DNA from: a virus
DNA length: 64,000 bases
Virus record (IMG/VR): IMGVR_UViG_3300029566_000004
Reading direction: 5' to 3' (one strand)
Shown here: piece by piece, positions 3,436 to 41,381 of the stretch
How the letters are laid out: the number at the start of each line of letters is the position of its first letter
How positions within the stretch are numbered: the stretch's first letter is position 1
Program-made: the position numbers and the translations under genes
The notes under the pieces: model-generated
The model's database searches: none
Told to the model about the DNA's origin: nothing
Seen by the model: only the letters and a program-made list of their open reading frames with translations

Positions 3436-3486
3436 GATAAAGGAGGTCATATATGTATATAAAAACAAATATAAAGGAGGGATAGT

Positions 3487-6400: not shown

Positions 6401-8022
6401 CATATATTCATTCGATGCATTTTAGAGCACGTGATATTCTTGACTGTTATTTAATACCAGCACAAGATCTGTTGCCTTATGATTGGGATGAAACAAAAAA
6501 TGATTTTATTCAAGTAAATCGTTAGGGACAAGTCTTTTTATGTCGCACAGCGACTGCAGTGCCTTATAATAGTCCAAGGACTTATGACGGCAAGATTCCA
6601 TTATTAGTGAGTGAATTATTAGACCGCACTATTTATAGATGCCATTATTATAAAGATGGTCATGAACAAGTGAAAGATTTTGATGGCTGGCTTTTAAAAT
6701 TGGCTTTAGACAATTAGCATCGTAATATCCCAGAATGGGATTTTATTCATTATAAGTCAAATAGCTTAATTCAAAAATCATTATATGATTATGATTATGT
6801 TTATTTTAATAATTTACAATGGATGACTACTTGCGAAATTCCAGATGATAATTTTAATGCACAAATTACAATTGTTGTAGACGGTGAAGCCAGCGATCCC
6901 ATCACTTTTAATTATAATAATAATTTAACAATTACTGTAAAAACTGTTTCAGCAGAAGACGAGCAAGTATTAGCAAAAACGAAATTAACTACTGCCCAAG
7001 TGCAAATTAACCGTGATTCAAATGGTTATTCTTTCTTTGATTATCCTATTGGAACAACTTGCGAGATTGCGCTTGGGGCTAATGTTTAGGCGGATGCGAG
7101 CTTAACTGTAGCGCATTTAACTTATCAATTTCCCGCTTCCGCAGCGGCTGATACGTGGGCAAGAATTTTAAGTTGGTTTAGTGCTGCATTAAAAAAATAT
7201 TAGCAAAATTTTGCTAATAGTAACTCATCTTTAGATAGAACTTATTGGGATTATTAGATGCGTCATATTTGCTAGATCTACTTAGACTACTTAAATTGGT
7301 TTTTAATTGAAGCAAGTACTGTTGATCAGCCATTAATGATACCACCTATGCCTAGTTATAATTATTTTGATAATGCAGGAGTCAGTTTACCTTAGCTAAA
7401 CTATTGGAGAAATTTAGAATATTTATATGCAGATAGTGAAAGCTTTCCGCTAGAAAATGAAGAGCCAAAGTACGATCAAAATAATTTGATTTTTGCAGAT
7501 AAACTATACAATTATATTATTAAAGATATTAAGGCAGCTGAAATATCTGCCGCAGCGCCGGGCATTTATCGTGCGGCAGAGCCCATTTCTAATTTAGTGG
7601 GTTATATAGATAAGAATGGACAACTTATTACTTCAGTTGAACAAAATGGTTTAATTATTATTCCAAATAAAAGTGCTTTATTATTAGAAATGTCTCCTGA
7701 ATTGTTAGCTATTGAATCTAGTACTTCTAATATAGAAAATCAGTTAATGACGAATGATTTATATTCTGCGAAATCATTAAAAGATCTGGCAGCAAAAGAA
7801 GAACTTTCAATTCCCTTAGAATATGGCTACTATAAAGTTACAAATGATCTAACAGAAAATGAACTACTTAAACTAACGGTTGGTGGCAAATCATTGGCGC
7901 AAGTTATGCAAGACAATAATTTAGTAACATTGCATAAAAATACAATTTTATAGGTTATTCCTCCATTATATAGTAATGGTATAATAATTAATCCTACTAC
8001 TGGAGTTAATAATCAAGGATAA
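3487..8022 (+). CDS. Large tail/baseplate structural protein (1511 codons), TAG read as sense
   Basis: ATG 3487 follows AAAGGAGGG (3474-3482). Frame 1 runs through track fragments 3778..4170, 4609..5004, 5065..5442, 5590..5772, 5845..6351, 6823..7089 and 7486..7953 to TAA 8020-8022. Read codon by codon: 19 in-frame TAG, no TAA/TGA. Confidence 0.75.
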
Positions 8023-8039
8023 AAAGGAGGACTTTTATT

Positions 8040-11000: not shown

Positions 11001-12083
11001 GATTATTTTGTAAATTCTACTAGCACTAAGGATTAGCCCTTAATTTATGATGATTTAATTGGTTTAACTGTACAAATTAACAACACAGAGCTAATATCGG
11101 AATTATTTCAATTATTAAATTTTAATTCACTTTATCAATTGTAGTGGCTTTTAAATATGTACTATGATTTTATATATGATAATTTCTCTGTTTTGAAAGA
11201 TGCGCATATGTTATCATATCAATTATTTATAAATCAATTAGCTGCAAAAACTGATTTATACTATAATGCCAATAGTAATGAAAGTAAAAAAATGTAGTTT
11301 AATAAATTTATTACTTTATTTAATTCACATTACATTTATGATAATTTAAATTATTATAATTTACAGCATATAAAAATACATCCAATTTTATCAACATTTT
11401 ATCATTTAAATGAGCAGCCTATTGAACAATTAGCGATTATTCCATATGATATTCATGGTAATCCCACTTATTTAACACGTCACTATGAGAAAATAAATTA
11501 TTATACTCGTGATTTATTATATTATGGGGCGAGTGATGGTATACGAGCATATTGGAATAAAGCAGTTTATGAAGCTCCTTATACATTAAATTTCTGGTTT
11601 GATTTTTTAGATACAGATGGTAGTATTTCGGCATATGCTACATCCGAAATAGGAGACAGGCCAATAGTGGTTAATGATACTAATTTAAAATCCATTTTTT
11701 ATAGAGAAATTCCAAAAATTTTAATTTATACTTTTGATCAATTCCAAGATGAAAAAATAGAATTAAAATCTGGTTATGGCTATATTTTATTGCCAGCTGG
11801 TTATGAACAATATTTTTCTATTTCTTCACGAGGATTAAGTATTAAAAATAAAATTGATGATTTACTTTATCAACATACCTATTGCAATTAGACAATAAAT
11901 TTAACTTGTATACCTATTTATTATTTAGATGTAAATAGTCGTATTTATATTGGTGATAAAAGATTAGGGATTGATGATGATTTCGCCATTTAGAGCATTA
12001 GTTATTCATTAAATTATAATGGCACGATGTCTTTAAGTGCAGCAAAAATTTAGCCTAATTCAATATTTGAGAGAGAGGAGTAA
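8040..12083 (+). CDS. Tail-associated/baseplate protein with two dockerin/EF-hand-like Ca-binding repeats (1347 codons), TAG read as sense
   Basis: ATG 8040 follows AAAAGGAGG. The frame links track fragments 8040..8270, 8340..8597, 8904..9254, 9522..9782, 10140..10385 and 11667..11891 and ends at TAA 12081-12083. 22 in-frame TAG, no TAA/TGA. Loops DWNHDG(TAG)ITLTD and DLDDDG(TAG)INEVE lie near 10645-10900. Confidence 0.75.
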
Positions 12084-12088
12084 TTAGC

Positions 12089-12511
12089 ATGGCAAAATTA
12101 ATTGAACAATGGTTGCCTCCTATGGATAAATTAGGGAATTTAAATTTAATAGATGAATAGGGTAACCCAAGCAATACTTGGGTTATCCCTTTACAAAAAC
12201 GGCAAGTTGCATCGATTGGTATTCAAGGTCCAGAAGGATTAATGTTTAGTATTAATGGCGCGCCAACTAATAAAACTAATTATTTGACTATTGGTGCTTA
12301 TGGTGTTTATAATTTAACACGTCATGATATTCAAGATTTAACCATTCGATCTATTACTATTTATTTTACAGAAACAAATAGTAAATGGTTAACAAAAAAT
12401 CCTTGGCCAATTATTGTTGATGTTGTTTATAGCGAAGAAGAATATAAATTCATCGAAGCTACTACGCCTGATACAAATAATTCAGATCTAATTAATGATT
12501 CCAGTAAATAA
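12089..12511 (+). CDS. Small virion-associated protein (140 aa), one in-frame TAG
   Basis: ATG 12089 follows GAGAGAGGAG. Same frame as track ORF 12242..12511. One TAG near 12158. Ends at TAA. Confidence 0.6.
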
Positions 12512-12531
12512 GAGAGAAAGGAGATTATTAA

Positions 12532-15500
12532 ATGAGTAATATTATTACAACGGATAGTTTATATAATAATCAATTTACATAGAATTCTACATATAAAGAA
12601 TTACTAATCTTTAGAAGCAGATGGGATGCAGATAACCAACCCCGTAGTGGCACGGGCGCACTTGTTAATAATGAAGAAAAATTATTTTGGATAAAAACAA
12701 TTAAAGATTACCCATATGTAGAAATCAGTCATGGCAAACCAAATATGGAATGGGCTGATGGTACTGCTACGCCACTTGTTAATTCTAATAACATTTGTGT
12801 ATCATCCTCTGTGGCTAATAATCCGGTTGCTACAAACGCAACTGCATTGGAATGGGGATCGCAAATCCTTATTGCTAAGCCAATTGTTGCAGATACAGGT
12901 CATGTGATTGGTACAAAAAGTACAGGCATTAATATTCCAAAAGTTAATGCAATTGAAAAATTAGAAATGCGCAGTCATACTGCTAATAATTAGATAGAGT
13001 ATACTTTTGCGCATAAAACTATTAACAATCCGCCTAATTCCTCACCAATTGCAAATGCAACGGTTATTCAAGAAAGTCAAAATAATACTAGACCTAAATC
13101 TAAAATAAAATTTGGGAAAACTTATGATATATCACAAGATCAATTTGATCAATGGGGTCATTATCTATCTCAATCTACTTAGACAATAGATATGCCAAAC
13201 ATTAATGCAACGTCTCCAATAAGTGTTACTTTAAACAATGGTGACGCTTAGATATCTCATAGTCTGGCAACAATTGTTGAAACTACGCCACAATTTTCAA
13301 CTTATACTAATTCTACGAACACGAGGGTCAAACTGCCAGAATTGACATTAGAAAATAATTATAATTTAGAAGGCCCTCATACAGATGCATATGGACATGC
13401 TAATGCATAGGCGCAATTTGGTTTTGCTTTACGACATCACTTACCTTTAACCAGGAAGGCTACAGCGCATACTTATTTAAGTGATACTACTGGTAAAACT
13501 ACAGCAATAGCTAGACCAAAGCGTGACGGAGACGCAAGCAGAACTGCTCCAGAAAACCCAATTTCATCGCCTATTGATAAAATTAAAATGGCAGCAGTTA
13601 TTTATGCAGGAGATAATGATGGCAATCGTCAGTCTTGCGTATATTTAAATGATTCTACAGATACAATAATCAATATTTATTTTTTAAATAAATCATTAGC
13701 TACTAATGCTGGATTGCGCAATGCGTATTTAACTTTTACATTTCCAACAAATATTACAGTTACAGAAACTATTATGAATCAATCTTACATAGCTTCTACT
13801 GATACGCAATATCATTATTAGTTACTTAATAATCCAGATATAAATAATCCAATTAATATTTTAAAATTATCAGTGCGTTCAACAGGGATGATAAATAAGT
13901 CAGCGATTAATATATAGGTTACACCAGCTATTATTGAAGCGATTGATATCCCATGCACAACGGCTACTAATCTAGATGATAATGACCCTGATTCGAATAC
14001 CATTATAACTTGGCAAGAAGATGCAATTTTACAAACGCCAGTAATGCAATTTAATGAACAAGGTCATATTAATGATATTTTAACCAAAGGCATTGCTTTC
14101 CCACATTATACTACTCCTTATGGACGAGAAACTACATTTAGTAAGGCAATTGACTATTTAAATCGTTATTTATCACCTAATCCTCGTAATAGTGTAATTG
14201 ATTAGTATTTAACTGGCGCGTCGCCAATAATTGAAATTCCTACAAGCGATTCTCCTGGGTCTGGTGATTAGTAGATTTATAGTTCATATATTGAAGTAGT
14301 TTTATAGGCTTGTTTATTAAATAACGGAAATGGTTTAGTAACTGGCAAGTCTCTATCTTTCGCTGGCTTACAATTTTCTTTATATCAATATGATGAAACT
14401 GCAAATAAATGGCAGCCTTATGTTTGGCGCAAATCTATTTCGACAAATCAAGCTGAATTAGAGATTGGTAATAATAACAATACTTCTAATACTGGATACA
14501 TTTATTTAACTGATACTAAACAACGAATTGCTTTTGTTTTATCATAGCCTTATATAACAATAAATAATGAAATTTAGAAATATATATTAACAGGTAATAA
14601 TGTTGAATTACTATGGGATACATCAACTTATGGTTATGTTATTAATTTACCTGCGGTTAAAGATATTTCTCAAATTAATCCATATTAGTTAATTCAAATT
14701 TCATTAACTAAAGACGAAAGCTATTCTCCAAGCCCATCGCCAGATGTGCATAATGTTGAATTTAGAATTTGTGCAGCAATGAGAACTGGACTTAATACCC
14801 CACAAGGATGTAAGTTTTCTTTATATAAATCTATACAAGGAACAACTTTATACGATCGAATTGGTGCTCCTTATCAAATTAATGATATTTATATTGATGA
14901 AGCAAATTTATTAACAGATGTTAATCATTATGAATTTTATACTTCATAGATATAGACTATTGATTCCAATAGTCTTAATACTATATATGTAGGTTTGGAT
15001 ACTACAACAAATCAAACAATAAGTTTTAATTATGTAACTTGTCAATTGGCAGAAGAAATAGCTATAGGGAATAATGTTATTGCGTTTAAAAAGTTTACTC
15101 GTGGTATTAAGCCATCTATGGATCAATATGTGCTATTTGTCGTGGTAGACGAACAAGGTTATCCGCCAGTCAGACCAATTAATCCTACAGCCAGTGAATC
15201 TGAACAATCTTCTAAAAATGCAGGAATGGAAAATCGTATATCAGCTTTAGAGCAAGCCACATTACAATTAACTAATATTAGTGATTTAAAAAGTGTAAAC
15301 AATTTAATTTCACGTGTTGCTAATTTAGAAGATGAAATTAATCCTATTGAATATGACGCTGCAGTTGGGCAAATGATAGCAAAAAATCGTTTTGAGAAAA
15401 TTGATGCATAGACCAAATATTTAAATAAAAATAATTATCCAATAGATTTAGCTGATGCGTTTTCAAAATTATTAATGTGTTATACTGGATTAGTGAAAGA

Positions 15501-15645
15501 ATTAGCTGGTAAATTCTATAGCGATAATTAGAATCAATTTATAGCGACATTTGCATTGCCTCTTCTTAAAGAGAATGATAATTAGTCATATTTACCTAGC
15601 GATGATATACCTTCGTTAGATTCTAATACAGGAGGCGGTAAATAA
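12532..15645 (+). CDS. Tail fibre/spike-like structural protein (1037 codons), TAG read as sense
   Basis: ATG 12532 follows AAAGGAG. The frame joins track fragments 12745..12993, 13588..13821, 14746..14949 and 14995..15411 and ends at TAA 15643-15645 (TAATG overlap with the next gene). 19 in-frame TAG, including a tandem TAG-TAG at 14269-14274. Coiled-coil-like segment near the C terminus. Confidence 0.7.
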
Positions 15646-16133
15646 TGAATCTGAATTCAATTTTAGGCAATTTTGTTAAATTTGTACGTGGCACTCCAAC
15701 TGCATATAATAATCTTCAACAAAAAAATCCTGATACATTGTATTTTATTACTGAAGACAATGCTTCTTCGGGTAAATTATATTTGGGAAATAAATTAATA
15801 GGTGGCTCTATCACAGGAGCCACCTCTCTTTCTGAATTAGTTGATGTCTTCTTAGATAATAATTTATCGGTTAATCATATTTTAGTCTATGAAGGTAATC
15901 ATTGGGTTAATAAAGATATTCGAGATATTTTTGAGATATCTATTGGTACAATGCAAGGCGCAACTAAAGATACTGATGGTAAAATAGGTTTAGTACCTGC
16001 GCCGCAGGCCAATCAATAGGACACTTATCTTCGAGGAAATGGAACATGGGATAATCCTATAGCTACATACTCTGAACAAATTAATACTATGATTCAAGAA
16101 AAATTACAATGGTCTACCATTGAAGAAAATTAA
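15645..16133 (+). CDS. Tail fibre protein (short), one in-frame TAG
   Basis: ATG 15645 follows GGAGG. Track ORF 15645..16019 stops at TAG and continues to TAA 16131-16133. N-terminal VKFVRGT..YNNL..NPDTLYF fibre motif and YLRGNGTWDNP after the TAG. Confidence 0.65.
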
Positions 16134-16159
16134 AATAAATAAGAAAGGAATTTTTATTT

Positions 16160-17692
16160 ATGGCGACAAAATTAAATACTGCTGTAACGTTTGTACATGG
16201 TACACAAACTACATTAAATACTAAAGGTATTACCAGTGGTCAAATTTATTTTACTACTGATACTAATCGTTTGTATTGGGCAGATCCCAGCGATAGTGGA
16301 ACATTAAAATGGATTGATGGCGTGAGACGCACCAATGCATTGCCTAGCGCTCCGGGTTCATATAATCCAAGTGGTTCAATTTTAGTTGTTACACAATCTG
16401 ATGATAATGGTGCATATGATGGAGTCTATATTGCCGATGATACTAGTTGGATAAAATTAGATGCAACTACATTAAATAGTAGTATTACTACCGATAATAA
16501 TACCGCGCATATTTCTCTAACTCCTCAAGGAAAATATACTAAGGGGACAATGTTTGATATTAAAGGAGACGGCAATGTAACAATTAGCTCTGATTCAAGC
16601 ACAATTACTATTTCTGTTCCGACTCCAACTAATACGCATTTAGTTGCTAATGACCATGCTTTATCCGCGACTATAACTAATGGCGATTTATCCATTAATA
16701 TGTCTGCCTCTGATAGCGAAAATAATACAGTCAATGGTAAGATAATTATTAATGGCGGTTCAAATATTCATATTGACCAGAATGAGCTTGGCAATATCGA
16801 ACTTTCTGCAACTAATACTTAGCTTGCAGCTACCACCACCGCAGTTAATTTAACACCAGCATCTTCAACGAATGGTGTTAAAATTGTTACAACTATTTCT
16901 GATACTGCTTCTAATGCGGCTACTGGTAATTTTGAGCTTGTTGGCGCTGATGGTATTGCGATTTCCCATAATAATAATGTTATTACTTTAACAGGTGGTG
17001 CGGCAGGAGTTATTGGAAATATTAAAGATTATGTAAATTAGGCATTAGCTGATGCTCTTGGTGACTTAGACGCTATGAAGTTTAAAGGCGCAATTAGCGT
17101 AGCTGATTTTAATAATTTAAATCCTAGTACATTTGAAAGTGGTTGGGCTTATAAATTTATTACTTCTGGCACAGTAACAGGCGCTTCTGCGGATGTTGAT
17201 ATTGGTGATATGGTTATCATGTCACAAGATGCAAGGAATAATTGGATTTATAATATTATTCCTTCTGGTGATGACACTGATGTTTATTATACACCTTCTA
17301 ATGATGCTACAAATCATCAGGTTAAATTCACTGATAATACTGGCACTTTAACAGTAGCACATAAAATTATTGGTGCTAATGGTATTACTACAACTGCTTC
17401 AGTAAATGGCAAAACTTTAACTGAGACAATTAAACATGTAACAATTACACCAACCAGTACAAAAGCTACAGTTGCTAATAATTTCGTATCTACAATGACT
17501 TTTGATGACTACGGTCATCCGAGTACAGTTACATATGCACCTGCTCATGTTGCTGTAACACCTACTGCGAGCTCTTCAACTGTTAATACATTTATTAATG
17601 GTTTAACATTTGATACTTATGGTCATGTTACCGCATACACAAACGCTACTGTTGATATCGATACAAATATGTATTGGCATACACTTAGCTAA
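16160..17692 (+). CDS. Tail fibre protein (510 aa), two in-frame TAG
   Basis: ATG 16160 follows AAGAAAGGA. Track ORFs 16160..16822 and 17075..17692 share a frame and are bridged by TAG at 16820 and 17039. N-terminal VTFVHGTQTTL..GQIYFTTDT motif. Repeated TFDxYGH segments. Confidence 0.7.
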
Positions 17693-17716
17693 TTTTAAAG
17701 AAGGGAGTTGATAATA

Positions 17717-20570: not shown

Positions 20571-21094
20571 TATGCCACCCCATTTATAATACCTTGTTTG
20601 TAATCAAAGAAAACATAGCAATAAGTACCTTCATCATTTGTAATCCAGATTTCAGCCGTCCAAGTATCTTCATTTACAGTAATATCTTTAATTTCACCTA
20701 GATTTTCAATAACTTCCATAAAGATATCACTTAATTCTTCATTACTATAATCATCATGATGGAAAATAGTAATGTAACGACGTTCCCAGCATATAAGAGC
20801 CCAATAATTTTGTTCAGGCATACCCGGATCCATAGTTGCGCCAAACATACGATAAATATCTGTCTGTGCCTTGCGCAACTGTTCATCTGTCATTGGTTTT
20901 AATTGTGCAAAAATACTAGAATTTAAATCTGCTAAAGTAATTGTGAACTCACCGCCATCCAATTTTACTGGTTCCCAACTACCATTTTTACATTGATACA
21001 TTTTCTTATCTTCTTCCACAAGCGCATATTCATTTTCCATGTTCTCACGATATGGAAGAGCATCTAATATTTTTTTTGTTTTAATATTTAACAT
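20570..21094 (-). CDS. Hypothetical protein (174 aa)
   Basis: Intact track ORF; AAGGGAG upstream of the ATG. Confidence 0.55.
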   Translation of the reverse strand: MLNIKTKKILDALPYRENMENEYALVEEDKKMYQCKNGSWEPVKLDGGEFTITLADLNSSIFAQLKPMTDEQLRKAQTDIYRMFGATMDPGMPEQNYWALICWERRYITIFHHDDYSNEELSDIFMEVIENLGEIKDITVNEDTWTAEIWITNDEGTYCYVFFDYKQGIINGVA

Positions 21095-21122
21095 ATATTT
21101 ACTCCCTTACTATTCTATATAT

Positions 21123-21131
21123 ATTATACCA
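21123..21131 (-). promoter_or_regulatory. Extended -10 promoter element (TGgTATAAT) followed by ATATATAGAA
   Basis: Minus strand reads TGGTATAATATATATAGAATAG. Same -10 and downstream motif as the other early promoters; the -35 is weak. Confidence 0.35.
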
Positions 21132-21142
21132 TAAAATATTTT

Positions 21143-21604
21143 TCATTTCTACTCGTCATATACTTTAGCAGTGTTAATTAATATACGTTTTAATTGTGGA
21201 TCCATACTAAATCTATTAGCATTTTTTTCAATACTTTTTAATAGGTTACCATCTAACTGACGCTCGGAAGCAGCCTTCCAGTCGCAAAACATTTCAACAA
21301 TATCAATTAAATTCATATCATCAATACTATTATCAAAATGCTCTGGATGATGCCTATATTGAGCATAATGGTGTTGAAGCGCACCATTCATTTTTTCTAA
21401 GCATTCGCGATACTCCGGACTATCATAAGTTAATTCGGAAAGCTTAGGCGTATATTCTGTAAAGACTTCAAGCTCAGGGTTTTCGAGTTTAGCTCTATCA
21501 TGTTCAAGTCCACGAGCATATAGCTTATTAATAAATAGCTATATATACTCGCGCACTTTTTCAATATGTTTATAGGTTTCAACTTTACATTCAGCTTGTG
21601 TCAT
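21143..21604 (-). CDS. Conserved phage protein with HHY..YRHHPEHF / DWKAA motifs (DUF5662-like, tentative); two in-frame TAG
   Basis: ATG 21604. TAG at 21539-21541. Track ORF 21149..21391 ends at TAG 21149 and continues two codons to TGA 21143-21145. Confidence 0.5.
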
Positions 21605-21605
21605 A

Positions 21606-22816
21606 TTAACCACACTTACTATATCCACAGTCAATACATGTTACACAACCCATTTCATGTTTTAGATCTGCACCGCATTGAGGACATTTTTCTTCTAATA
21701 GAGTTTGAGTCTTTACTTTATGTTCATTATTAAATTTTTCCCACATTTCCATTAACGCATTTCCGATGGCGACAGGGCAGCATGAACCCGGAGATACGTC
21801 ATTCTTTGTAGCGCGGCGCACCGCATAACTAGGACAGGTTCCACTGCTCTTAAGCTGATCAACAATTTCTTCAATAGGAGTACCATTGCGCGCAGCCAGA
21901 CTAATCATACGCGAAAGTCCAATCATAAAGTTGTTGCATCCACCGGTACTTCCTTTGCTTAAATAAGTATTACGCAAATTGCCATCTTTATCAAAGAAAG
22001 CAGTTATATGTAGTGAACCACATCCAGTAGTTAAATGATGTTCCATACCTAAGCAATCAGAAGTGCCTTTCTTCGAAACTATCTTTTTAATCTTAGGTTC
22101 TTCGACCGCAGTTTCAGATTTCTTTTCTCCTGAAGTAGCGTTAAGAATAGCCGTGCGCGCACATCCAGCACGAAAGACTGTAATACCCTTTAAGCCATGC
22201 GACCATGCATTCATATAAATGTCGCGTACGTCATCAACCGTTGCTTCATTGGGAAGATTAACCGTTGATGAAATACTTGCATCTATGTGTGCCTGCCAGG
22301 TGCTTTGCATCTTGATACGATTAATGGGTTCAAGTTCAGCAGAAGTAATAAACCATTCAGGTAAGTCCGCATCATCTTTAATGCCATGGGCATCCATGTA
22401 TTCTTTAACTATTGGAGTATATACTTTGTAGGTTACGTCCTTACCATGTAAAGACTTCGTAGTACGAGTATAATAATTAGCAAAAATGGGTTCAATGCCT
22501 CCTGAAATGCCCAGCATGGTGGACAACGTGCCTGTAGGCGCAATGGTTAATAATTGACTATTATATAGACCAGCGCTTTTAAATCCGTTAATTGCTAATC
22601 CATTTGGATTGTAGTGTCGCTGAATAAAAGATGAATTTATTACTTCGGGAATATATTTAGGATATGGCGTGCCATGTTCAGCTGCCAATTTGCTGCTTGT
22701 TGCAATAGCGGTACGCGCCAATAAAGTACCAATTTCATCACTAATTGTAAGGGCTGCTTTGGAACCATAAGTAATTTGCATTTTAATCAATGCATCAGCA
22801 AGACCCATGATACCTA
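21606..22816 (-). CDS. nrdJ: Class II (B12-dependent) ribonucleotide reductase, exon 3
   Basis: Starts (L)GIMGLADALIKMQITYGS, completing the IGLG.MGLAD motif begun in exon 2. C-terminal CPQCG..CVTCIDCG zinc ribbon. TAA stop. Confidence 0.8.
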
Positions 22817-23752
22817 CATTAAATCTAATTATTTCTAATTAGAATGGACTATCTCTTCAATATTTATTATTGTTTTGCACTTCGAATAGTAACTCATCTT
22901 CTATTCTACTGGGCTACACTCATCACCCATAGTCTCTACACCTTTTTTAAATATATTTCCATTTATAACCAAAAGCTTTTTTGCTATCTTTGCATCTTTT
23001 ACAAATATCTGAACTAGGAGTTTGACTAACTGTTAAATGCTATTTTATACACCAATCACCAGCTTCTTTTAAACTGTTGAAAATTTTAATTATTTTATAA
23101 TCGTCTGTACACATAGCTACTTTTTTACTATTTTTTTCCCTTATTTTATTTTTAGTTTCTTCTGTGTGGTGATGATTATAAAAAGGATTTTTTTCTCCTG
23201 TTCTTAATGATGCAATTTTTGATATTTTTTCTTTTGTTTTTTCATTATGCCTATGACCATAAAAAGGATTATTTTCTCCATAAAGTTTTTCTCCCCCATC
23301 GGTCATATTATATCCATTTGGCATTTTTGAATTAAAATATTTTATATAATACTATTCTAATTCTAATAATTTTTCTTTATCATCTTCATATACAACAACT
23401 TCATATTTAAAATTTTCCCAACCATATTTTTTAATTGCTCGCCCTAATAAAGTATTATGATTTATATCATCATTTTTATGTCGGCGCATTCTTTCTTTTA
23501 AAGTAGCTGTAGTATATCCGATGTACAGTTTATTATTTATTATATTGGTTATTTTATAGATACATCCCATATTATCACTTCCTTTGAAATATAGGAAATA
23601 TATTTAAAACTTGGCACGGTATTATCATATCCTTTTTATAGGACTTAGACTCCCTTACCCATAATATAATTACTTATTTCTGGACCGTTAGCCGAATAAT
23701 CGACACCCCTGAGTAATAGGGTTCACAAAATTTTAATTGACCTAGATTTTTA
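22817..23752 (-). mobile_element. Group I intron 2 in nrdJ (936 nt) carrying a GIY-YIG homing endonuclease gene
   Basis: Exon 2 ends ..ATT GGC T (U) and the intron ends ..AATG (omega-G). R-like element GTAGAGACTA (+ strand 22931-22943) and S-like element AGATAGTCCA (22845-22855). Splicing restores the frame and the RNR motif. Confidence 0.7.
22857..23570 (-). CDS. GIY-YIG homing endonuclease (I-TevI/Seg-like, NUMOD3 repeats), TAG read as sense; 3' end uncertain
   Basis: GCIYKITN..LYIGYT, then NPFYGHRHNEKTKEKIS and NPFYNHHHTEETKNKI repeats. Track ORFs 23352..23570 and 23040..23324 share a frame and are joined by TAG 23352. TAG also at 23040 and 22914. The canonical ending AFGYKWKYI* sits in another frame after an A5 run near 22977. 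Confidence 0.6.
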
Positions 23753-24305
23753 AGCCAATTTGACGCCAATCGCGCACACTATCTCTTTGCTCTTGCAGAG
23801 GATGACGATACAGTCCCTCATCTAAAACATCGTTAAGTGCACGCACTGCAACATCAACTGCCCGTTCAAATTCTTTCCATTGAAATTCTCCATTTACAAC
23901 AAACGCAGCCAAATTTAATGAACCAAGTAAACAACTGCCGCCAGCGGGCAGTGGCTCTTCGGCGCAGGGATTAGTTCCAGCATATTCAAAATCCGGATGA
24001 GTATTTAGCATATTTTCTTGTTCAATTCTATCCCAAAACAAAATACCTGGCTCTGCATAATTCCAATTTTGTTCACAAAGCAAATTAAATAAATCTTTTG
24101 CTTTTACGGTTTTACTAATTACTTCACCTGTTTCAGGTCGAGTAAAACTTAATTCCCAATCGTTATCATGTTGTACAGCGGTCATAAAGTCATCAGTTAC
24201 GCGTACAGAAATGTTAGCATAATTAACTTTATTTAAGTCACTTTTGATTGTGATAAACTTTTCAATATCGGGATGGTCGCATCGCATGGAAATCATTAAA
24301 GCCCC
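23753..24305 (-). CDS. nrdJ: Class II ribonucleotide reductase, exon 2
   Basis: GALMISMRCDHPDIEKFI continues the ..QNGRR of exon 1. Contains NPCAEEPLPAGGSCLLGSLNL. Confidence 0.8.
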
Positions 24306-25286
24306 CATAGTGGACTATATCTTATTTATTATATAATAATAAACTCGGGCGCTAATACGGTCTTATTGTTTCCTCAACCGTTAGTCTCTACACCTTCTAC
24401 TGCTTTTTCTTCAGTAGCTTGGCTCGGGGTTGTTGGGCCTTCCCCGAATTCACCCAATTCAAGACGCAGGGCTTGTGCTTTATCGTATTTTCTTTTTAGA
24501 ATAATAAAACTATCGTTTGGATAAATAAAATTTAAAAACTTTAATACATCTTCTCTATTGGCGAATTCTAATACGAAACAATTTTCATTAGACTTTGGTC
24601 TAATAATTGTTGAAATTGCGCATTGTTTTAATAAAATTTGTTGGATTCCTTCAAGTATTTTTAACGAAGAAGTAAAAGAGATTTTTTGCCATAATCTATT
24701 TCGGTCTTTTCTTCTACCCCATGTTAAACATCCGTCTCCATCAAAAAATCCTTGTACCAAATATTTTTCTAAATTTTTAGGAATAATGGGACAATGTTTA
24801 TTTTCTTTTGAAGAACAATGCTTATTAAAATCAGTAATTAAATCTAAATTACCAATAGTAATTCTAGCGCGAGGAAAACGTTTGGTTTTTGGAATATAGG
24901 TTAAATCTTCTGTATAATTTGCTCCAATGTATTCTGCAATAAATTGTAATATCTTTTTATCTTCTAAACAACACCCAAATTCAACTACATTATCATTGAT
25001 GTATCCATCTGCTAAAGCATAGCCAATAATATAAGCTTTTTCTGGAGTATCAATTTTATTAAACATTTTTGGGTTTTTATATTTAGGTTTTTTATATTTA
25101 GACTTGTCATTTAACCCATATTTAGTAATCCAATATTCAATAGTTGATTTTGCTTTTCCAACAATCTTTGCAATTTCTTGTTGTGTTAATCCTTTTTCTA
25201 AATATTTTTCTAATAGTTTTCTATTCACAGAAAGAGCCTCCTACTCTATATATTTTCGGAAACTTACAATTTAATTAAGCAAGTTT
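24306..25286 (-). mobile_element. Group I intron 1 in nrdJ (981 nt) carrying a LAGLIDADG homing endonuclease gene
   Basis: Exon 1 ends ..AGA CGT (U) and the intron ends ..ATG (G). R-like GTAGAGACTAA (24382-24394) and S-like GATATAGTCCA (24311-24321). Confidence 0.7.
24374..25228 (-). CDS. LAGLIDADG homing endonuclease with N-terminal HTH (284 aa)
   Basis: Two LAGLIDADG motifs (YIIGYALADGYI, LVQGFFDGDGCL). GTG 25228 follows AGGAGG. No in-frame TAG. Confidence 0.8.
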   Translation of the reverse strand: MNRKLLEKYLEKGLTQQEIAKIVGKAKSTIEYWITKYGLNDKSKYKKPKYKNPKMFNKIDTPEKAYIIGYALADGYINDNVVEFGCCLEDKKILQFIAEYIGANYTEDLTYIPKTKRFPRARITIGNLDLITDFNKHCSSKENKHCPIIPKNLEKYLVQGFFDGDGCLTWGRRKDRNRLWQKISFTSSLKILEGIQQILLKQCAISTIIRPKSNENCFVLEFANREDVLKFLNFIYPNDSFIILKRKYDKAQALRLELGEFGEGPTTPSQATEEKAVEGVETNG

Positions 25287-25736
25287 ACGTCTGCCATTTT
25301 GTCCAATTTGTTCGGTCACTTGTGAGAAAGTGTCCATGAAAGAAACAGCGCCACTTGTTGTTTTGGCTTGATTATGAACTCTTGCACCTGCTGGAGCCAA
25401 TTTACTAATATCAATGCCGCATCCTCCACCATATGAATAAGTACGTGCCAACTTTTTACAAGTTTCATAAATACTTTCAATGGAGTCCTCTGGAGGACTA
25501 ATAACATAACAATTACTATATGTTACTCGCTCTATCTGCTCACTTACATTTCGGTTAGAAAGAATACGACCACCAAATAAAAATTTCTTATCAATAATTA
25601 ATTGTTTTACTTCTTCATGACCATTACTAATACGGTCTAACCATTGGTCAAAACTTTCATCACCACGACGATATTTTTTCTCCCATATATCAATACCGAG
25701 AGTATTATTTTCGCCTAACCAATCTTGTATTGTCAT
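25287..25736 (-). CDS. nrdJ: Class II ribonucleotide reductase, exon 1
   Basis: MTIQDWLG..FGGRILSNRN..YGGGCGIDISKL..QIGQNGRR. The three exons total 737 codons in one frame. Confidence 0.8.
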
Positions 25737-25805
25737 AAGTTACTCCTTTATCTAAATGTAGTATGGTGTGGGGATACACCTACTATATATGGATTTTATA
25801 ATAAT

Positions 25806-26387
25806 TTATTTAATGTAATTTACCCAATCATCTATGTATCCTTTAAGTACTTCAGCTTCTTCTTCAGTAGTTAAAGAACCATCAGTTCGCATAATGATTG
25901 TATTCTCTCTATTTGAAATATCGAATTCAGAGAAATCAAATCGGTCAGTATTATACCGCCTTAATACTTCTTCCACATCTGGAGTATTCTCTCGTGAAAG
26001 CTGGCGTATGAGCCGTATATGGTCTGGGCAATCGCACATAATTAATAAGACATTTAAAAAGTCATGACTATCAAGAGCTTCCACCCCAGCAGGATTGAAG
26101 ACTCCAAAGTTTAATTTATCTTCGGCTAAATCAAGAACACTTGTGCCATATACCCAGCCATTAAATTCAGCTGCTTCAAGCATCTTACCTTCTTCAATTA
26201 GTTGAATAAATTCATCTCTGGTTATAAAATGATAATCTTTACCATCTACTTCATAATCTCTTGGTGGACGCGTAGTATAACTTACTTTTATGTGCGCTTC
26301 TGGATATATTTTTGCAAGGGCTTGGAGCAGCGCATCTTTGCCTGCTCCAGCCTTACCACATATCGCAACTATATTATACTTCTTCAT
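25806..26387 (-). CDS. Guanylate kinase-family (d)NMP kinase
   Basis: P-loop CGKAGAGKD and signature YTTRPPRDYEVDGKDYHF. Confidence 0.75.
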   Translation of the reverse strand: MKKYNIVAICGKAGAGKDALLQALAKIYPEAHIKVSYTTRPPRDYEVDGKDYHFITRDEFIQLIEEGKMLEAAEFNGWVYGTSVLDLAEDKLNFGVFNPAGVEALDSHDFLNVLLIMCDCPDHIRLIRQLSRENTPDVEEVLRRYNTDRFDFSEFDISNRENTIIMRTDGSLTTEEEAEVLKGYIDDWVNYIK

Positions 26388-29300
26388 CTTCCTCAGTTGT
26401 GCCTCCTTGATAACGAGTATCTTGTAAGATTAAATCTCCATTGCTTTTTACTTCGTTAATTTTATATAATTGATGTCCTACTGTGCTTGCATATTTCTTA
26501 CAAATGAAATTATCCCCTGAACGCATTCCATTTACAATTATCATATTACCACGCTTAAACCAAGAACGCTCAACTATATGTTTCTTGCCATCCGCTCCAC
26601 GTTCAGAAATCTGTCTATCAAATAATGCGAAATATTCTTTTCTAAACTTTACTTCAACAACGCCATCGGGAGTCAGCAAGGTTACTGTACTTTTTGTTTT
26701 ATTTCTATCAATACAAGTTCCTGCAATTTTCGTTAACTTAAAAAGTGGAATAGTTTTATTGCCACGATACCAATACTTATCAGCTTCTGGCTCTTCTGGT
26801 AAATCAAAGAAATCACTTAAACCATATTTTTCATTATTGATATTTAATAACTCGTGGTCATGATAATAAATACATGCAGCTTCCATTTCCCAATGTGAAA
26901 TTGTTCCGGACGCATATTTATCCCATTCTTCTTTGAACAAAATTGTATTTAACTTGAATAATAAATCTGATTTATTTTGCATCATCCAATGTCTAAATAT
27001 ATCCATTTCGCTTTGATATATCTTATCCCACTGTTTTGCATTCATTAAATCTCCATCAATTAATCTTTCCCAACCTTGACTAATTAAAAAATCAATTGCG
27101 CGCACGTCTAACCGATAATTTATATCTGATGCTTTCTCACGACATACTGCTTTGAGATAACGATTAAATTCATAAATGCGCAGACCGCGTTCCATCTTTT
27201 CATCATCTAATGGAACCAAATTGTATTTTAGTAATGTAGGGAAACTTGTTAAGTTCAAATTTGTCTTTGGCTCACAAGTTGTCCATAAATACCATGCCAT
27301 TGTAAACTTGCGGTCTTCTATACTATCAAAAGCTCCTGCTTTGATAAGTGAAATCATTGCTTGTTTTTTTGGATGTGCTCTATTTACAAAATCTTTTGGT
27401 GATGTATATGGACGATTCTCAATTATAACTTTGATAAAATCATCACCAACATTTACCAAATTCTTAAATCCCATTAAGATACAATTATTTTTTACATCAG
27501 GCGTAAAGCCATATTTTGAGGTATTAATATCAACTAACTTAACATCAATATCAGATGTTGTCAATTCACCAATAGCTTTTGCAATTTTACCATAATTAGT
27601 ACTTGCGCCACCGTCTTCATCAGTTGCACCGCTATTTACAATTAAACAAGCTGTATCCCAATATATTGAATTCCAATGAGTGGAAAGATAAATCATCTGT
27701 ACTCCAACAAATGAATACGGTAATGAATGATTTTTACTAAATGCATATCCAAGACTTGGTGCAATCGCTGTAAACCAAATATAATCTGCATAATGTGCGT
27801 CGCCCACATGCTCATATAATTGTTTACGCAAATCGGGAATTTTTTTCATTTGTTTCTTTGCAACAATTTTACGAGCTGCGTTTGCTTCTCCCAAAGTAAA
27901 CTTTGCAATATCTTCATCCATTAAAATTTCCATCATTTGCTCTTGAAGAGGAACTGTGCCATAATACGCATCACAATACTTATGAAACGCCGCACGCTGC
28001 TTATCATTTAATCCTCGAGTTAACATTTCCTCTTCAAACTCATTAGGATGTTCTTTTATACGAACATATCTATCCTGCTGTGGCTCTTTGCCTTTCTCAG
28101 ACATAAGACGCATCAACGCCGATGCCGCAGTCATCTCTAACATATTTTGCGGTTTGAGCTTTTTTGCTATCATCAAACCAACACCTGTTGCGAACTGGAA
28201 TACGTCGAGAATATCTCCCGCCGCAAGGTGATCCCAAAGTTCTTGATTAGTTACATCTATAACTTCTGGATGGAGATATTGATTATAAAATGTTCTCAAA
28301 TCAATATCTTCTATTTGTTTATCTTCCTTTAACATCTCATAACATTTGATAATTTTATCAGATGCTTCTGTTACAAGGAAGTCATACTTTGTATCACCAG
28401 CGGCTTCTGCCTCATGCAAATCCCAACAAGTTACTAAATCCCAACCAGGAGAACGCATAAATGATGCGGTTTCAAATGGGTTATCACCATACAAAATTAC
28501 ACCACTTGCATGTACTCCACGCTTATTGACAAGACCGCAAATATAAACTATGATATCTAATAAGCCAGGATATTTATTTACTTCCTCTAAGAAAGATGTA
28601 ACAGGTTTCCTATCTCTTTCTTCATTTCCATATATAACATCATTAATCTCCCATAAGAAACCACGCTCTTGTGGAATGAGAGAAGACATATATTGCGCTA
28701 TATCTACATCAATTCCATCGGGATATTCTTCACTTCTATATCCACGACAAGCAGTTTGGATTGCAGATTTAGTTGCTTCTGTACCAAATGTGACAACCTG
28801 CACAACACCAAATTCTCCGCGTTCTTCTCTTATCTTTTCAAAAATCAAAGGACGCTTACTTGGCGCAAGGTCAATATCAATATCAGGTAATTCCGCACGT
28901 TCTTTATTTAAAAACCTCCAGTATGGCAAGTCCCAACGAATCGGGTCAAGCTGGGTGATACCCAATAGATAATTAGATAAAAAACCTGTTGCTGAACCAC
29001 GACCGGGACCTACGATGCTACCGCACTCCCAAAATAAATTAATATAATGTTGGAATGTATTAAAATATGCAAATAGACAATCGTCTAACTTTTTTCCGAT
29101 ATCTTGAATAATATCAGCTTCAACGCAAATGCGGTCAATATAATTCCATTCCCACAAACCTTTTTCTATTAATCCTTCAAGACATTGATTAATCCAATAT
29201 CTCTCTTGAGGATTATCTGATGTTCCTAAATCTTGAATGATTTTCCATCGGCCCTTTAATTCATCGGCATAATCATTATTAACACCAAAATAATGATGAT

Positions 29301-30261
29301 ACTCACTTTTATCGTATTCTTTAACTTGAATCTTTGGAATAATCTGTTTGCGCTCAAGGCTAAACCATTGAATTTTTTTTTGCAGCTCTTGACTATTTTC
29401 AAACATCCAATCAATTACTGCCTCATCTTCAATGCTCTTTAACATTAATTCTTTGACTTCATCGGGAGACATTACATATGTATACTGATAGAACTTATCA
29501 GTTTCACGGTCGCCATCTTTAGAAGTCAAATACGCACGATGAATTGGTCTATCTTCTGGACGCAGATAATGAGCATCAGTACCAATAACCATAGGGATGC
29601 CCAATGCTTTACTTATCTTATATAAAGTTTGATTAACTAATATCTGTTCTTCATCTGTGCTTGGAGCGCACTCAATATAAAAATCAGAACCAAAAATATC
29701 TAAACAATAATTTAAGAAATTATTGATATTGTCATAATAAATCTTGGCGTTTTGATTATCTCCAACTGCTCTTGCCTTTGCCATCAATAAAGCATTAGAT
29801 GATAACTCACCACCAATACAAGCACTTGTTGCAATTACATGTCCAGGATTTTCTTTAATAATTCTCTTTAAATCTTCCTTTAAAGTTGGAACACGTTCCA
29901 GACGACCATATTCATATATGTTTGTCCATGCAAGTGAACTTAATTTTTTAAGTTGTGTATAACCGTCATTATCCTTTGCAATTAATATAAAGTGATAATA
30001 CTTTTGCTTCGGTTCTCTGGTCTCTGTAAGATAAATTTCATTACCTAACGCAATCGTAAAATCTGGGTCGGTTTCGCGCATCGCTTTCGCTAATTTATTA
30101 ACTGTCATATGCGCACAAAGAGCTTCGTGGTCCGTTATTGCCAAACCACTTAGCCCTAATTCTTTCGATGTTTTAATTAATGCTTCAGGTCGATTAATAC
30201 TATCAAGTAAGCGAAGATTTGAATACATTGTATGCGCATGGCAATTAAAGTATGTGTTCAT
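26374..30261 (-). CDS. dnaE: DNA polymerase III alpha subunit (DnaE-type, N-terminal PHP domain)
   Basis: 1295-aa intact ORF. PHP motif CHAHTMYS..DHEAL and GPGRGSATGFLSNYLLGITQLDP. No TAG. Confidence 0.9.
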   Translation of the reverse strand: MNTYFNCHAHTMYSNLRLLDSINRPEALIKTSKELGLSGLAITDHEALCAHMTVNKLAKAMRETDPDFTIALGNEIYLTETREPKQKYYHFILIAKDNDGYTQLKKLSSLAWTNIYEYGRLERVPTLKEDLKRIIKENPGHVIATSACIGGELSSNALLMAKARAVGDNQNAKIYYDNINNFLNYCLDIFGSDFYIECAPSTDEEQILVNQTLYKISKALGIPMVIGTDAHYLRPEDRPIHRAYLTSKDGDRETDKFYQYTYVMSPDEVKELMLKSIEDEAVIDWMFENSQELQKKIQWFSLERKQIIPKIQVKEYDKSEYHHYFGVNNDYADELKGRWKIIQDLGTSDNPQERYWINQCLEGLIEKGLWEWNYIDRICVEADIIQDIGKKLDDCLFAYFNTFQHYINLFWECGSIVGPGRGSATGFLSNYLLGITQLDPIRWDLPYWRFLNKERAELPDIDIDLAPSKRPLIFEKIREERGEFGVVQVVTFGTEATKSAIQTACRGYRSEEYPDGIDVDIAQYMSSLIPQERGFLWEINDVIYGNEERDRKPVTSFLEEVNKYPGLLDIIVYICGLVNKRGVHASGVILYGDNPFETASFMRSPGWDLVTCWDLHEAEAAGDTKYDFLVTEASDKIIKCYEMLKEDKQIEDIDLRTFYNQYLHPEVIDVTNQELWDHLAAGDILDVFQFATGVGLMIAKKLKPQNMLEMTAASALMRLMSEKGKEPQQDRYVRIKEHPNEFEEEMLTRGLNDKQRAAFHKYCDAYYGTVPLQEQMMEILMDEDIAKFTLGEANAARKIVAKKQMKKIPDLRKQLYEHVGDAHYADYIWFTAIAPSLGYAFSKNHSLPYSFVGVQMIYLSTHWNSIYWDTACLIVNSGATDEDGGASTNYGKIAKAIGELTTSDIDVKLVDINTSKYGFTPDVKNNCILMGFKNLVNVGDDFIKVIIENRPYTSPKDFVNRAHPKKQAMISLIKAGAFDSIEDRKFTMAWYLWTTCEPKTNLNLTSFPTLLKYNLVPLDDEKMERGLRIYEFNRYLKAVCREKASDINYRLDVRAIDFLISQGWERLIDGDLMNAKQWDKIYQSEMDIFRHWMMQNKSDLLFKLNTILFKEEWDKYASGTISHWEMEAACIYYHDHELLNINNEKYGLSDFFDLPEEPEADKYWYRGNKTIPLFKLTKIAGTCIDRNKTKSTVTLLTPDGVVEVKFRKEYFALFDRQISERGADGKKHIVERSWFKRGNMIIVNGMRSGDNFICKKYASTVGHQLYKINEVKSNGDLILQDTRYQGGTTEEDEEV

Positions 30262-40786: not shown

Positions 40787-41381
40787 CATTTATGGACTAT
40801 CTTTTACTCTCTAATGAGAGGATACCATTTCGGCATTTAATTAGCTTCGTTTCCTAAAACTAAACTACGTATCAATAGTAGCCCTACTTCCCTGCCCAGA
40901 AGGCCTTGGGAATAGTCTCTACAGGTTCATTTCAAACACACATTTTAAATATAAAACTTTACTCTACGTCTAAACTATAGCCTTCAATCTCGGCTTTAAT
41001 TTCAAGCTGGTACAAATATTGCCCCATAGCACTTGCTTGTGACTTCCACTGCTCCATAGGGCAATTTGGTTCAAAATCAAGCTTACCAGCTTCTCTCTTT
41101 ATAATCATTGAATGGAGTTTATTATACTTGTCCTTAACAAAATAATACTCTCCAATCGCCCTACTCTTATAATCATCAGATTTTAGTAATTCAATAATCC
41201 TATCAAACGTCATAGTAATTGCCTCCTTAAAATAACAAATCCTTAGTTTACAAGTTATATGTGTGTGTTTGAAATGTTTCCCACGGGATTCCAATGGGGG
41301 GTTCCCCGTTAGCTATATTTTACAAAAAATATAACCCTCGCTGATAGACGAGAAAAGTATTTCATTGGCAGAAAGAATTCT
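40787..41381 (-). mobile_element. Group I intron in the thyX-like gene (595 nt) carrying a non-nuclease ORF
   Basis: Exon 1 ends ..TAC TGG T (U) and the intron ends ..AAATG (G). R-like GTAGAGACTA (40913-40922) and S-like AGATAGTCCA (40793-40802). Paralogous to the dnaB intron. Confidence 0.7.
40959..41213 (-). CDS. Intron-encoded 84-aa protein without recognisable homing-endonuclease motifs
   Basis: ATG 41213 follows TAAGGAGG. MTFDRIIELLKSDDYKSRAIGEYYFVKDKYNKLHSMI..; predicted helical. No GIY-YIG, LAGLIDADG, HNH or His-Cys motif seen. Confidence 0.5.
   Translation of the reverse strand: MTFDRIIELLKSDDYKSRAIGEYYFVKDKYNKLHSMIIKREAGKLDFEPNCPMEQWKSQASAMGQYLYQLEIKAEIEGYSLDVE

Follow-up and report, generated by a model that had tools for sequence, protein, structure and literature searches.

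A class II ribonucleotide reductase gene of a phage that reads TAG as sense and its two putatively mobile group I introns

Introduction

Do three consecutive reading frames on one strand of a viral DNA represent three genes, or a single gene for ribonucleotide reductase (RNR) that is interrupted by introns? This question is raised by the region 21606..25736 (minus strand) of a 64,000-nt stretch of the IMG/VR record IMGVR_UViG_3300029566_000004, which is designated the window below. A first-pass annotation made from the letters alone had proposed that the open reading frames (ORFs) 25275..25736, 23742..24308, and 21606..22808, all of which are present on the minus strand in the ORF list, are pieces of one nrdJ gene split by two group I introns. 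We consider it highly probable that the region holds one class II nrdJ gene with two mobile group I introns of phage IA type, each of which carries its own endonuclease gene. In the following, the evidence for the gene, the intron boundaries, the RNA structures, and the endonuclease genes is presented, alternative explanations are weighed, and the locus is compared with known systems. Related viral loci are designated by L numbers.

The nrdJ gene and its spliced product

The gene is composed of three exons and two introns, all on the minus strand:

25287..25736, minus strand: NrdJ exon 1, codons 1-150; ends in ...CAG ACG U, U25287 being the base before the 5' splice site; homologues without the intron are contiguous at 25287|24305
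24306..25286, minus strand: intron 1, group I, 981 nt; in-frame TAA three codons past the 5' splice site; terminal G24306
23753..24305, minus strand: NrdJ exon 2, codon 151 to the first base of codon 335; ends in ...AUU GGC U
22817..23752, minus strand: intron 2, group I, 936 nt; precisely absent in L001, L002, and L012
21606..22816, minus strand: NrdJ exon 3, remainder of codon 335 to codon 737, followed by TAA; holds the C-terminal TSCPD domain

The join 25736..25287 + 24305..23753 + 22816..21606 yields a coding sequence of 2214 nt, whose 737 codons include neither an internal stop nor a TAG; the frame is thus restored at both junctions, as had been proposed. The spliced protein is collinear over both junctions with its best solved relative, the B12-dependent RNR NrdJ of T. 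maritima (1xje; E 2e-69), with QNG-RRGALM opposite QGSRRRGALM at junction 1 and QIGLGIMGLADAL opposite RLGLGIMGFADLL at junction 2 (..GLGIMG..). It fills positions 1-522 of the 523 positions of the Pfam profile Ribonuc_red_lgC in a single stretch (E 4e-107), matches the Pfam domain TSCPD as well, and reaches 485.1 bits with the NCBIfam equivalog TIGR02504 (NrdJ_Z; cutoff 399.95) over residues 26-555. On the basis of these matches, the predicted spliced product is a class II (B12-dependent) RNR, NrdJ, and the three ORFs are pieces of this one protein. Both insertion points are located in conserved motifs of the catalytic barrel, RR|GA for intron 1 and GL|GI for intron 2. A megablast search of the region against deposited phages gave zero matches.

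The ends of the inserts obey the group I rule, according to which the exon ends in U and the intron in G: the last exon bases are T25287 and T23753, and the last intron bases are G24306 and G22817. The R and S core elements that had been noticed in both inserts were found again, the sequence AGAGACUA being present in both introns (24389-24382 and 22937-22930) and GAUAUAGUCC in intron 1, with a counterpart in intron 2, GAGAUAGUCC, that differs by one base. An interpretation of the inserts as inteins was rejected, as they are out of frame and contain stop codons and ribozyme cores; group II introns were set aside, as a reverse transcriptase ORF is missing and a group I core is present.

Natural alleles and insertion sites in related phages

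When viral contigs were scanned with the spliced protein, 35 loci were obtained, which were sorted by BLASTN and TBLASTN. L010 and L011, which are 98-99% identical to the window, contain both inserts. In L001, L002, and L012, which are equally 98-99% identical, intron 1 is present and precisely 23752..22817 (936 nt) is absent, the limits being ambiguous by 2 nt (TA); the sequence of L002 and L012 at this site, ...AAATTGGCT|TAGGTATCATGG..., is the same as that of the spliced window. Seven more distant loci (L003, L004, L015, L016, L018, L019, and L028; about 60% protein identity) have the two exon ends directly joined, exactly at 25287|24305, with the sequence ...AGACGT|GG(C/G/T)GCATT.... The empty site of intron 1, of L003 type or synthetic, is ...GGCAGACGT|GGGGCTTTAATG.... 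Because alleles exist without exactly intron 2 and homologues are contiguous exactly at the site of intron 1, the inserts are not a product of chance, and the junctions inferred by the first-pass annotation are fixed independently by these natural alleles. A co-conversion tract near the introns was not found by sliding identity against L001, L002, L010, L011, and L012 (background about 99%).

Homologous introns at the first site are found in L013, L032, L017 (partial), and L060 (partial). About a dozen loci have other inserts at a third site of NrdJ, the active-site motif NPCA|EEP near residue 265. The inserts in L017, L019-L027, L029, and L032 have lengths from 317 to about 1190 nt, and L032 thus has introns at two sites. 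The record of the Clostridioides phage pCD1602_4 (CP069348.1 87748-91181; locus L267), which is deposited without annotation, has an NPCA|EEP insert with an HNH-type ORF.

Two further observations concern the surroundings of the gene. Compared to L002 and L012, the patch 21000-22000, which spans the TSCPD part of nrdJ, has an identity of 86% against a background of about 99%, which indicates mosaic recombination inside nrdJ. In a related phage contig, a HEARO RNA (RF02033, 102.5 bits) is located about 2 kb downstream of nrdJ (L024 8699-8913).

RNA structure of intron 1 and its LAGLIDADG gene

The structure of intron 1 was deduced from its sequence, from RNAfold, and from an alignment of 12 sequences prepared with MAFFT, in which 36 base pairs were assessed (alignment A2). 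Its elements are as follows, with the share of cells paired in A2 given for the core helices:

24374..25228, minus strand: LAGLIDADG homing endonuclease ORF, 284 aa; GTG start 8 nt past AGGAGG; no TAG; in the P1 loop
24462..24474, minus strand: P10 guide AAGCCCU (24474-24468), then internal guide sequence (IGS) GCGUCU (24467-24462); read from the sequence
24306..24461, minus strand: catalytic core; RF00028 match, covariation (A2), RNAfold
24457-24451/24351-24345, minus strand: P3; 95%
24447-24442/24429-24424, minus strand: P4; 97%
24423-24421/24394-24392, minus strand: P6; 100%
24417-24412/24402-24397, minus strand: P6a; 100%
24386-24382/24317-24313, minus strand: P7; 100%, invariant
24381-24377/24361-24357, minus strand: P7.1
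24343-24337/24331-24325, minus strand: P8; 93%

A guide sequence was not seen by eye near the 5' end of the intron; it sits 820 nt downstream, in the 3' end of the LAGLIDADG ORF. A hairpin AAACUU/AAGUUU at the 5' end has no pairing with the exon. The IGS GCGUCU pairs with AGACGU of exon 1 to form P1, with a U·G pair at the splice site, and the adjacent AAGCCCU forms a P10 of 7 bp with the start of exon 2, GGGGCUU. Because of the distance of 820 nt, the LAGLIDADG gene lies in the loop of P1 and overlaps the core: its last approximately 35 codons are at the same time the P10 guide, the IGS, and the 5' strands of P3, P4, P6, and P7. In the relatives, the P10 strands change to UAAUGCGCU/GGCGCAUUA (L013) and UAAUGCUCU/GGAGCAUUA (L032), which is compensatory; the varying pair consists of the third position of an alanine codon of the endonuclease and the third position of a glycine codon of nrdJ, and its changes are synonymous in both ORFs.

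In A2, 89.5% of the cells are paired and 20 of the 36 pairs show compensatory changes, compared to 33-43% paired cells in slid controls. RNAfold gives P3, P4, P6, P6a, P7.1, and P8 (z = -2.0). P7.1 is a single hairpin between the 5' strand of P7 and P3', for which only 41% of the cells are paired in A2; because MAFFT misaligned it, its assignment rests on inspection, by which ACGGU/ACCGU is found in intron 1 of the window and GUGG/CCAC in L013 and L032.

The predicted product of the intron 1 ORF is a LAGLIDADG homing endonuclease, as the first-pass annotation had assumed. It matches the Pfam family LAGLIDADG_3 with 41.3 bits (cutoff 22.5) and shows two motifs of this type in one chain, YALADGYI and GFFDGDGCL; the match to phrog_4645 ('endonuclease'; E 8e-31) spans only residues 3-253. 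Homologous ORFs are present in L013 and L032.

Upstream of the start codon, the stretch GAAAAUAUAUAGAGUAGGAGG (25238-25269, minus strand) resembles GAAAAUGAUAGAGUAAGAGAGG in L013 (approximately 4470-4500) and shows a sub-threshold match to the Rfam family DUF805b (21.8 bits, E 0.008); either a conserved expression signal or chance could account for this.

RNA structure of intron 2

The ribozyme of intron 2 is divided into two halves by the endonuclease gene, which is inserted in the loop of P6:

23571..23752, minus strand: 5' ribozyme half
23747-23743, minus strand: P10 guide AUCUA, adjoining the IGS on its 5' side; 5 bp with UAGGU at the start of exon 3
23742-23735, minus strand: IGS GGUCAAUU; pairs with AAUUGGCU of exon 2 (23760-23753)
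23730-23725, minus strand: P3 5' strand, UUUUGU
23722-23705, minus strand: hairpin A
23704-23691, minus strand: hairpin B
23687-23684/23620-23617, minus strand: P4, CGGU/ACCG; encloses an extended P5 domain
22947..23570, minus strand: GIY-YIG and NUMOD3 homing endonuclease ORF, 207 aa with TAG as sense; in the P6 loop; ends with TAA
22817..22946, minus strand: 3' ribozyme half; terminal G22817
22934-22930/22851-22847, minus strand: P7
22929-22925/22914-22910, minus strand: P7.1
22906-22901/22889-22884, minus strand: P7.2
22878-22873, minus strand: P3 3' strand, GCAAAA
22872-22868/22862-22858, minus strand: P8
22843-22824, minus strand: P9 hairpin with GAAA loop

P1 comprises 8 bp with a U·G pair at the splice site and is recovered by RNAfold. 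The long-range helix P3 is formed by the six bases before GAACC and the six bases after CGAAG(U/C), which are UUUUGU/GCAAAA in the window and covary in about 20 relatives (CCGUGU/GCACGG, CUGCGU/GCGCGG, GAACGU/GCGUUC, CACGGU/GCCGUG, and others). UUAUUC/GAAUAG was also tried as P3 and was rejected, as it shows no covariation in L071 and L080. In an alignment of the window with seven relatives, from which the ORF and the P5 domain were removed (alignment A1), all 328 cells of 41 pairs are standard (100%), and 19 of these pairs, distributed over P3, hairpin B, P4, P7.1, P7.2, and P8, show compensatory changes, with P7 and hairpin A being invariant. When the 3' partners were slid by 1-3 columns, 39-44% of the cells were paired, and 0 of 500 shuffles reached the observed values. 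Both P7.1 and P7.2 are present and both covary; these two helices between the 5' strand of P7 and P3' are typical of subgroup IA2 in the classification of Michel and Westhof (PMC3984707). With covariation in both introns, the proposal of two group I introns is borne out. In the 5' half of intron 2, the ribosome-binding site of the GIY-YIG gene can be masked by a hairpin.

TAG as a sense codon and the GIY-YIG gene

The GIY-YIG ORF contains two in-frame TAG codons (23354-23352 and 23042-23040) and is broken into three fragments under the standard code. Its interpretation depends on the genetic code of the phage. In the section 1-16000 of the window, the share covered by stop-free frames of 150 aa or more is 8-45% under code 11 and 89-100% with TAG as sense; recoding of TGA brings no gain in coverage there. 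Four plus-strand genes at 193-15645, inside the plus-strand section 1-17700, have 1037-1511 aa with TAG as sense and 19-22 TAG codons each. Most minus-strand replication genes, including nrdJ and the LAGLIDADG gene, are free of TAG; several small genes carry 1-4. Judged from these coding sequences, TAG is a sense codon in this phage. The only codons found in its place in close relatives are CAG (L011) and CAA (L002, L012), at two codon sites in three contigs; TAG therefore probably encodes glutamine. An alignment of GIY-YIG homologues did not reveal the amino acid for TAG, the residues opposite the first TAG being variable.

With TAG as sense, the predicted product is a GIY-YIG homing endonuclease of I-TevI type: the complete Pfam profile GIY-YIG (1-78 of 78) is matched across the first TAG with 47.6 bits, NUMOD3 is found with 50.4 bits, and phrog_314 ('homing endonuclease') covers residues 1-207 in one stretch (E 1e-43). 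Because the phage reads TAG as sense, the gene would be intact. The first-pass assignment of this gene to the GIY-YIG family thus holds, and the single ORF exists only if TAG is read as sense.

Proposed mechanism

For splicing, cleavage, and timing we infer the following course of events. The nrdJ gene would belong to the early/replication module of a phage of roughly 130 kb that reads TAG as sense. Ribosomes on exon 1 or exon 2 would meet a stop codon 3-6 codons past the respective 5' splice site. The intron would fold, the last exon bases pairing with the IGS with U·G at the splice site; an external guanosine would then attack, P10 would align the next exon, the terminal G would be exchanged, and the exons would be ligated, resulting in the mRNA for the 737-aa NrdJ. 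In intron 1, translation of the LAGLIDADG gene and folding of the ribozyme would be mutually exclusive on one RNA molecule, because the ORF runs through P10, P1', P3, P4, P6, and P7. In intron 2, the ribosome-binding site of the GIY-YIG gene could be sequestered in a hairpin, and because the gene holds two TAG codons, formation of the full-length enzyme would require that TAG be decoded, presumably at a late stage of infection. Both endonucleases presumably cut alleles without the respective intron and thereby drive homing, which would fit the polymorphism of intron 2 among phages that are about 99% identical.

Weighing of the evidence and alternative explanations

Several observations weigh against this interpretation and are considered together here. 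The first-pass annotation had named the Rfam family RF00028 for a scan, and this expectation failed: over the window there was no match at the gathering threshold of 50 bits. The core of intron 1 alone (24500..24305) reached 36.5 bits (E 3.8e-8 in that small search), with the same helices assigned, and intron 2 gave no match. At E <= 10, a search with Rfam of 21500-25900 and of intron 2 alone gave only chance matches (DUF805b, MEG8, snoRNAs). The low score of intron 1 probably results from the distant 5' strand of P1 and the absence of P5. For intron 2, the best explanation is the ORF insertion together with the atypical 5' domain, in which two hairpins lie between the 5' strand of P3 and P4, an arrangement outside the RF00028 model. 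L080, an ORF-less relative of the intron 2 type, likewise has no Rfam match, and the failure of RF00028 with this subfamily is probably due to the two hairpins.

At least 120 viral loci were found by means of the shared R element AAGGUGUAGAGACUA. Among those listed, 43 have an S element 22-262 nt downstream and the expected P4'/P6 context. Several relatives without an ORF reach the gathering threshold of RF00028 (L083 with 84.5 bits; L045, L074, L091, L055, L051, L052, L078, and L058 with 50-80 bits), and the introns of the window are therefore regarded as homologous to genuine group I introns of Rfam. The 5' motif of intron 2, GUGAACC-hairpin-GGGUGU-hairpin-GCUAACGG, is present in at least 120 stretches of viral contigs, and 25 of those listed also contain strict R and S motifs; the size of this family is not established, because a few tens of matches could, by estimate, be due to chance. 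Judged from intron 2 and L080, the GUGAACC-type subfamily appears to be invisible to RF00028.

A further difficulty is that intron 1 is devoid of a P5 helix, P4 being capped by the 12-nt loop AAGGCCCAACAA, whereas a P5 of 4-5 bp is present in L013, L032, and other relatives; because P5 is absent, unaided self-splicing of intron 1 is uncertain. Intron 1 could thus be a true group I intron that does not splice by itself, either because it depends on a cofactor (the LAGLIDADG protein as maturase or a host factor) or because it is defective and nrdJ a pseudogene. We regard this as unlikely, although it fits the missing P5 and the overlap of the ORF with the core, and although maturases of LAGLIDADG type are known, among them one from the bacterium Thermotoga (PMC3984707). 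The P5-less core is free of substitutions in at least six contigs (among L001, L002, and L012 there are zero in the core and 7-12 in the LAGLIDADG part of the ORF), all nrdJ frames are intact, and so are the remaining core helices, P1, P10, and the terminal G. The exon dN/dS (ratio of nonsynonymous to synonymous substitution rates) of about 0.1 also speaks for a functional gene. It amounts to 0.06-0.19 per exon for the three exons against L001, L002, and L012; because the close relatives are about 99% identical everywhere, this evidence derives mostly from the single divergent patch in exon 3.

A more specific variant, which we consider doubtful and put forward only tentatively, is that intron 1 is a protein-dependent phage group I intron whose LAGLIDADG protein doubles as a maturase that assembles the ribozyme. 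It is suggested by the loss of P5, by the separation of the guide from the splice site by a whole gene, and by the threading of the ORF from P1' to P7. If true, two different couplings of translation and splicing would be combined in one gene, together with the TAG-gated GIY-YIG gene.

With respect to intron 2, tRNA searches of the window and related loci gave no suppressor tRNA, and there is no tRNA gene anywhere in the window. In L010 (approximately 4560-5476), the GIY-YIG ORF has a 1-nt deletion in an A-run, by which the intron is shortened to 935 nt and the endonuclease truncated; the endonuclease gene may here have begun to decay, as such genes can, unless the deletion is an assembly error. 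It is conceivable, though improbable in our view, that the GIY-YIG gene is not recoded but has become a pseudogene in decay through two nonsense mutations, and that intron 2 is then immobile. The three fragments under the standard code, the frameshifted copy in L010, and the variable homologous residues at the first TAG, by which glutamine is not confirmed there, agree with such a decay. However, both stops are TAG, are in frame, and are kept in L010 and L011; TAG is used as sense throughout the window, not only in the late genes with 19-22 codons each but also in small genes beside nrdJ, and is exchanged with CAA and CAG; the read-through protein fits phrog_314 with residues 1-207 and the Pfam profile GIY-YIG from end to end; and intron 2 is polymorphic among genomes that are about 99% identical. 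The recoded, intact endonuclease gene is therefore preferred.

That nrdJ is instead a fragmented gene with free-standing endonuclease insertions, whose three polypeptides assemble after translation like NrdA of the Aeromonas phage Aeh1, is very improbable: each piece is an ATG-starting ORF in the mechanical ORF call and split RNRs assembled from fragments are known (PMC3045599), but the ATG of piece 2 is formed by the last three intron nucleotides, neither this ATG nor the internal methionine of piece 3 is preceded by a Shine-Dalgarno sequence, the breaks lie inside conserved barrel motifs, and both inserts hold complete covarying ribozyme cores with P1 and P10 tailored to the exact junctions.

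Related introns and a third group I intron in the window

Among the 25 stretches with strict R and S motifs, introns of the intron 2 type were also observed in a putative recT-like gene (assigned from the exon translation alone) in six contigs, L165, L166, L174, L180, L203, and L237, with a GIY-YIG gene in P6. Their P1 is CUUGGCU/GGUCAAG, compared to AUUGGCU/GGUCAAU in intron 2, which suggests that this intron type moves between unrelated genes with similar targets.

The window contains a third group I intron:

40787..41381, minus strand: third group I intron, 595 nt; R element CCUGUAGAGACUAU, S element AAAGAUAGUCC; terminal G40787
P4 of the third intron, minus strand: GCUAACGGGG/CCCGUGG
P1 of the third intron, minus strand: UGGU/GCCA with U·G at 41382, then a 10-bp P10, GGAAAGAAUU/AAUUCUUUCU
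40959..41213, minus strand: ORF of 84 aa inside the 16-bp P6 stem; strong ribosome-binding site

Rfam gave nothing at this intron. The spliced product of its host gene (273 aa) is matched without a break by phrog_6721 (unknown function; E 1e-52); an identity as ThyX, seen by eye, was rejected, as the match to Pfam Thy1 is not significant (E 0.08) and there is no PDB match. The 84-aa ORF matches the Pfam family of crAss001_48-related proteins (E 3e-11) and phrog_774 (unknown function) and is not a recognisable endonuclease.

Comparison with known systems

The closest classical parallels are the genes td, nrdB, and nrdD (sunY) of T4 with I-TevI, I-TevII, and I-TevIII, which likewise contain group IA introns in phage genes of nucleotide metabolism, including RNR. 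The T4 introns also share the GIY-YIG endonuclease of I-TevI type in the P6 loop, the NUMOD3 linker repeats, and nearly identical R and S elements. In T4, expression of the endonucleases is delayed relative to the host gene, and the same is expected for the introns of the window. In contrast to T4, a class II nrdJ is the host gene, TAG codons that need recoding would account for at least part of the delay, and P3 and P4 of intron 2 are separated by two additional hairpins. The T4-type introns belong to a background of mobile elements that has been described elsewhere (PMC2988022; PMC3984707).

In nrdE of Twort and in nrdE and nrdF of SPbeta and the B. cereus group, several introns with different endonucleases likewise occupy conserved motifs of one RNR gene, P7.1 and P7.2 helices are found, and the presence of the introns varies between close strains, as described in PMC2248736 and in references of PMC3984707. 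These are class Ib genes with HNH or GIY-YIG instead of LAGLIDADG enzymes and with the standard code, in all of which the window differs. Phage introns in general mostly carry GIY-YIG, HNH, PD-(D/E)xK, or EDxHD enzymes (PMC3984707).

Alternative coding combined with dense group I introns, some of them LAGLIDADG-bearing, was described for crAss-like phages of the Delta and Zeta groups (Yutin et al., PMC7886860); unlike these phages, which have PolA or PolB, the phage of the window has a DnaE-type polymerase (26374..30261). For Agate phages with TGA recoded to tryptophan, recoded stops in the intron endonuclease of an early gene were proposed to delay its production (Borges et al., 10.1101/2021.08.26.457843); the window differs in that TAG, probably as glutamine, and not TGA is recoded. 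Neither RNA structures nor exact junctions were determined in the work on alternatively coded gut phages. The locus analysed here is a well-mapped test case for the published idea that stop recoding delays the intron endonuclease of an early gene.

The Clostridioides phage pCD1602_4 (CP069348, a 132-kb record) encodes a NrdJ with an identity of about 51%, whose gene is interrupted by a group I-like intron that holds an ORF of HNH type; it differs from the window by an insertion at the third site, NPCA|EEP, and by a different endonuclease. A survey of phage RNRs from 2013 listed only two split nrdJ genes, neither of which was described there as intron-interrupted. The class II nrdJ would now join the phage RNR genes invaded by group I introns and would be an intron hot spot in this phage group, where inserts occupy at least three sites and bring LAGLIDADG, GIY-YIG, and HNH genes along as cargo. 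The intron-plus and intron-minus alleles at about 99% identity offer a ready-made natural homing system. For annotation, it is relevant that standard gene callers and Rfam miss both introns and would leave three RNR fragments and one broken endonuclease. Points of some interest are nrdJ as the host gene, a LAGLIDADG gene in a phage intron and there in the P1 loop of a P5-less core, the TAG-dependent GIY-YIG gene, and the polymorphism of intron 2. The arrangement as a whole is of a classical kind, if slightly unusual in that TAG is read as an amino acid, and its place among the multi-intron phage RNR genes with different endonucleases, as known from T4, Twort, SPbeta, and the B. cereus group, is well supported.

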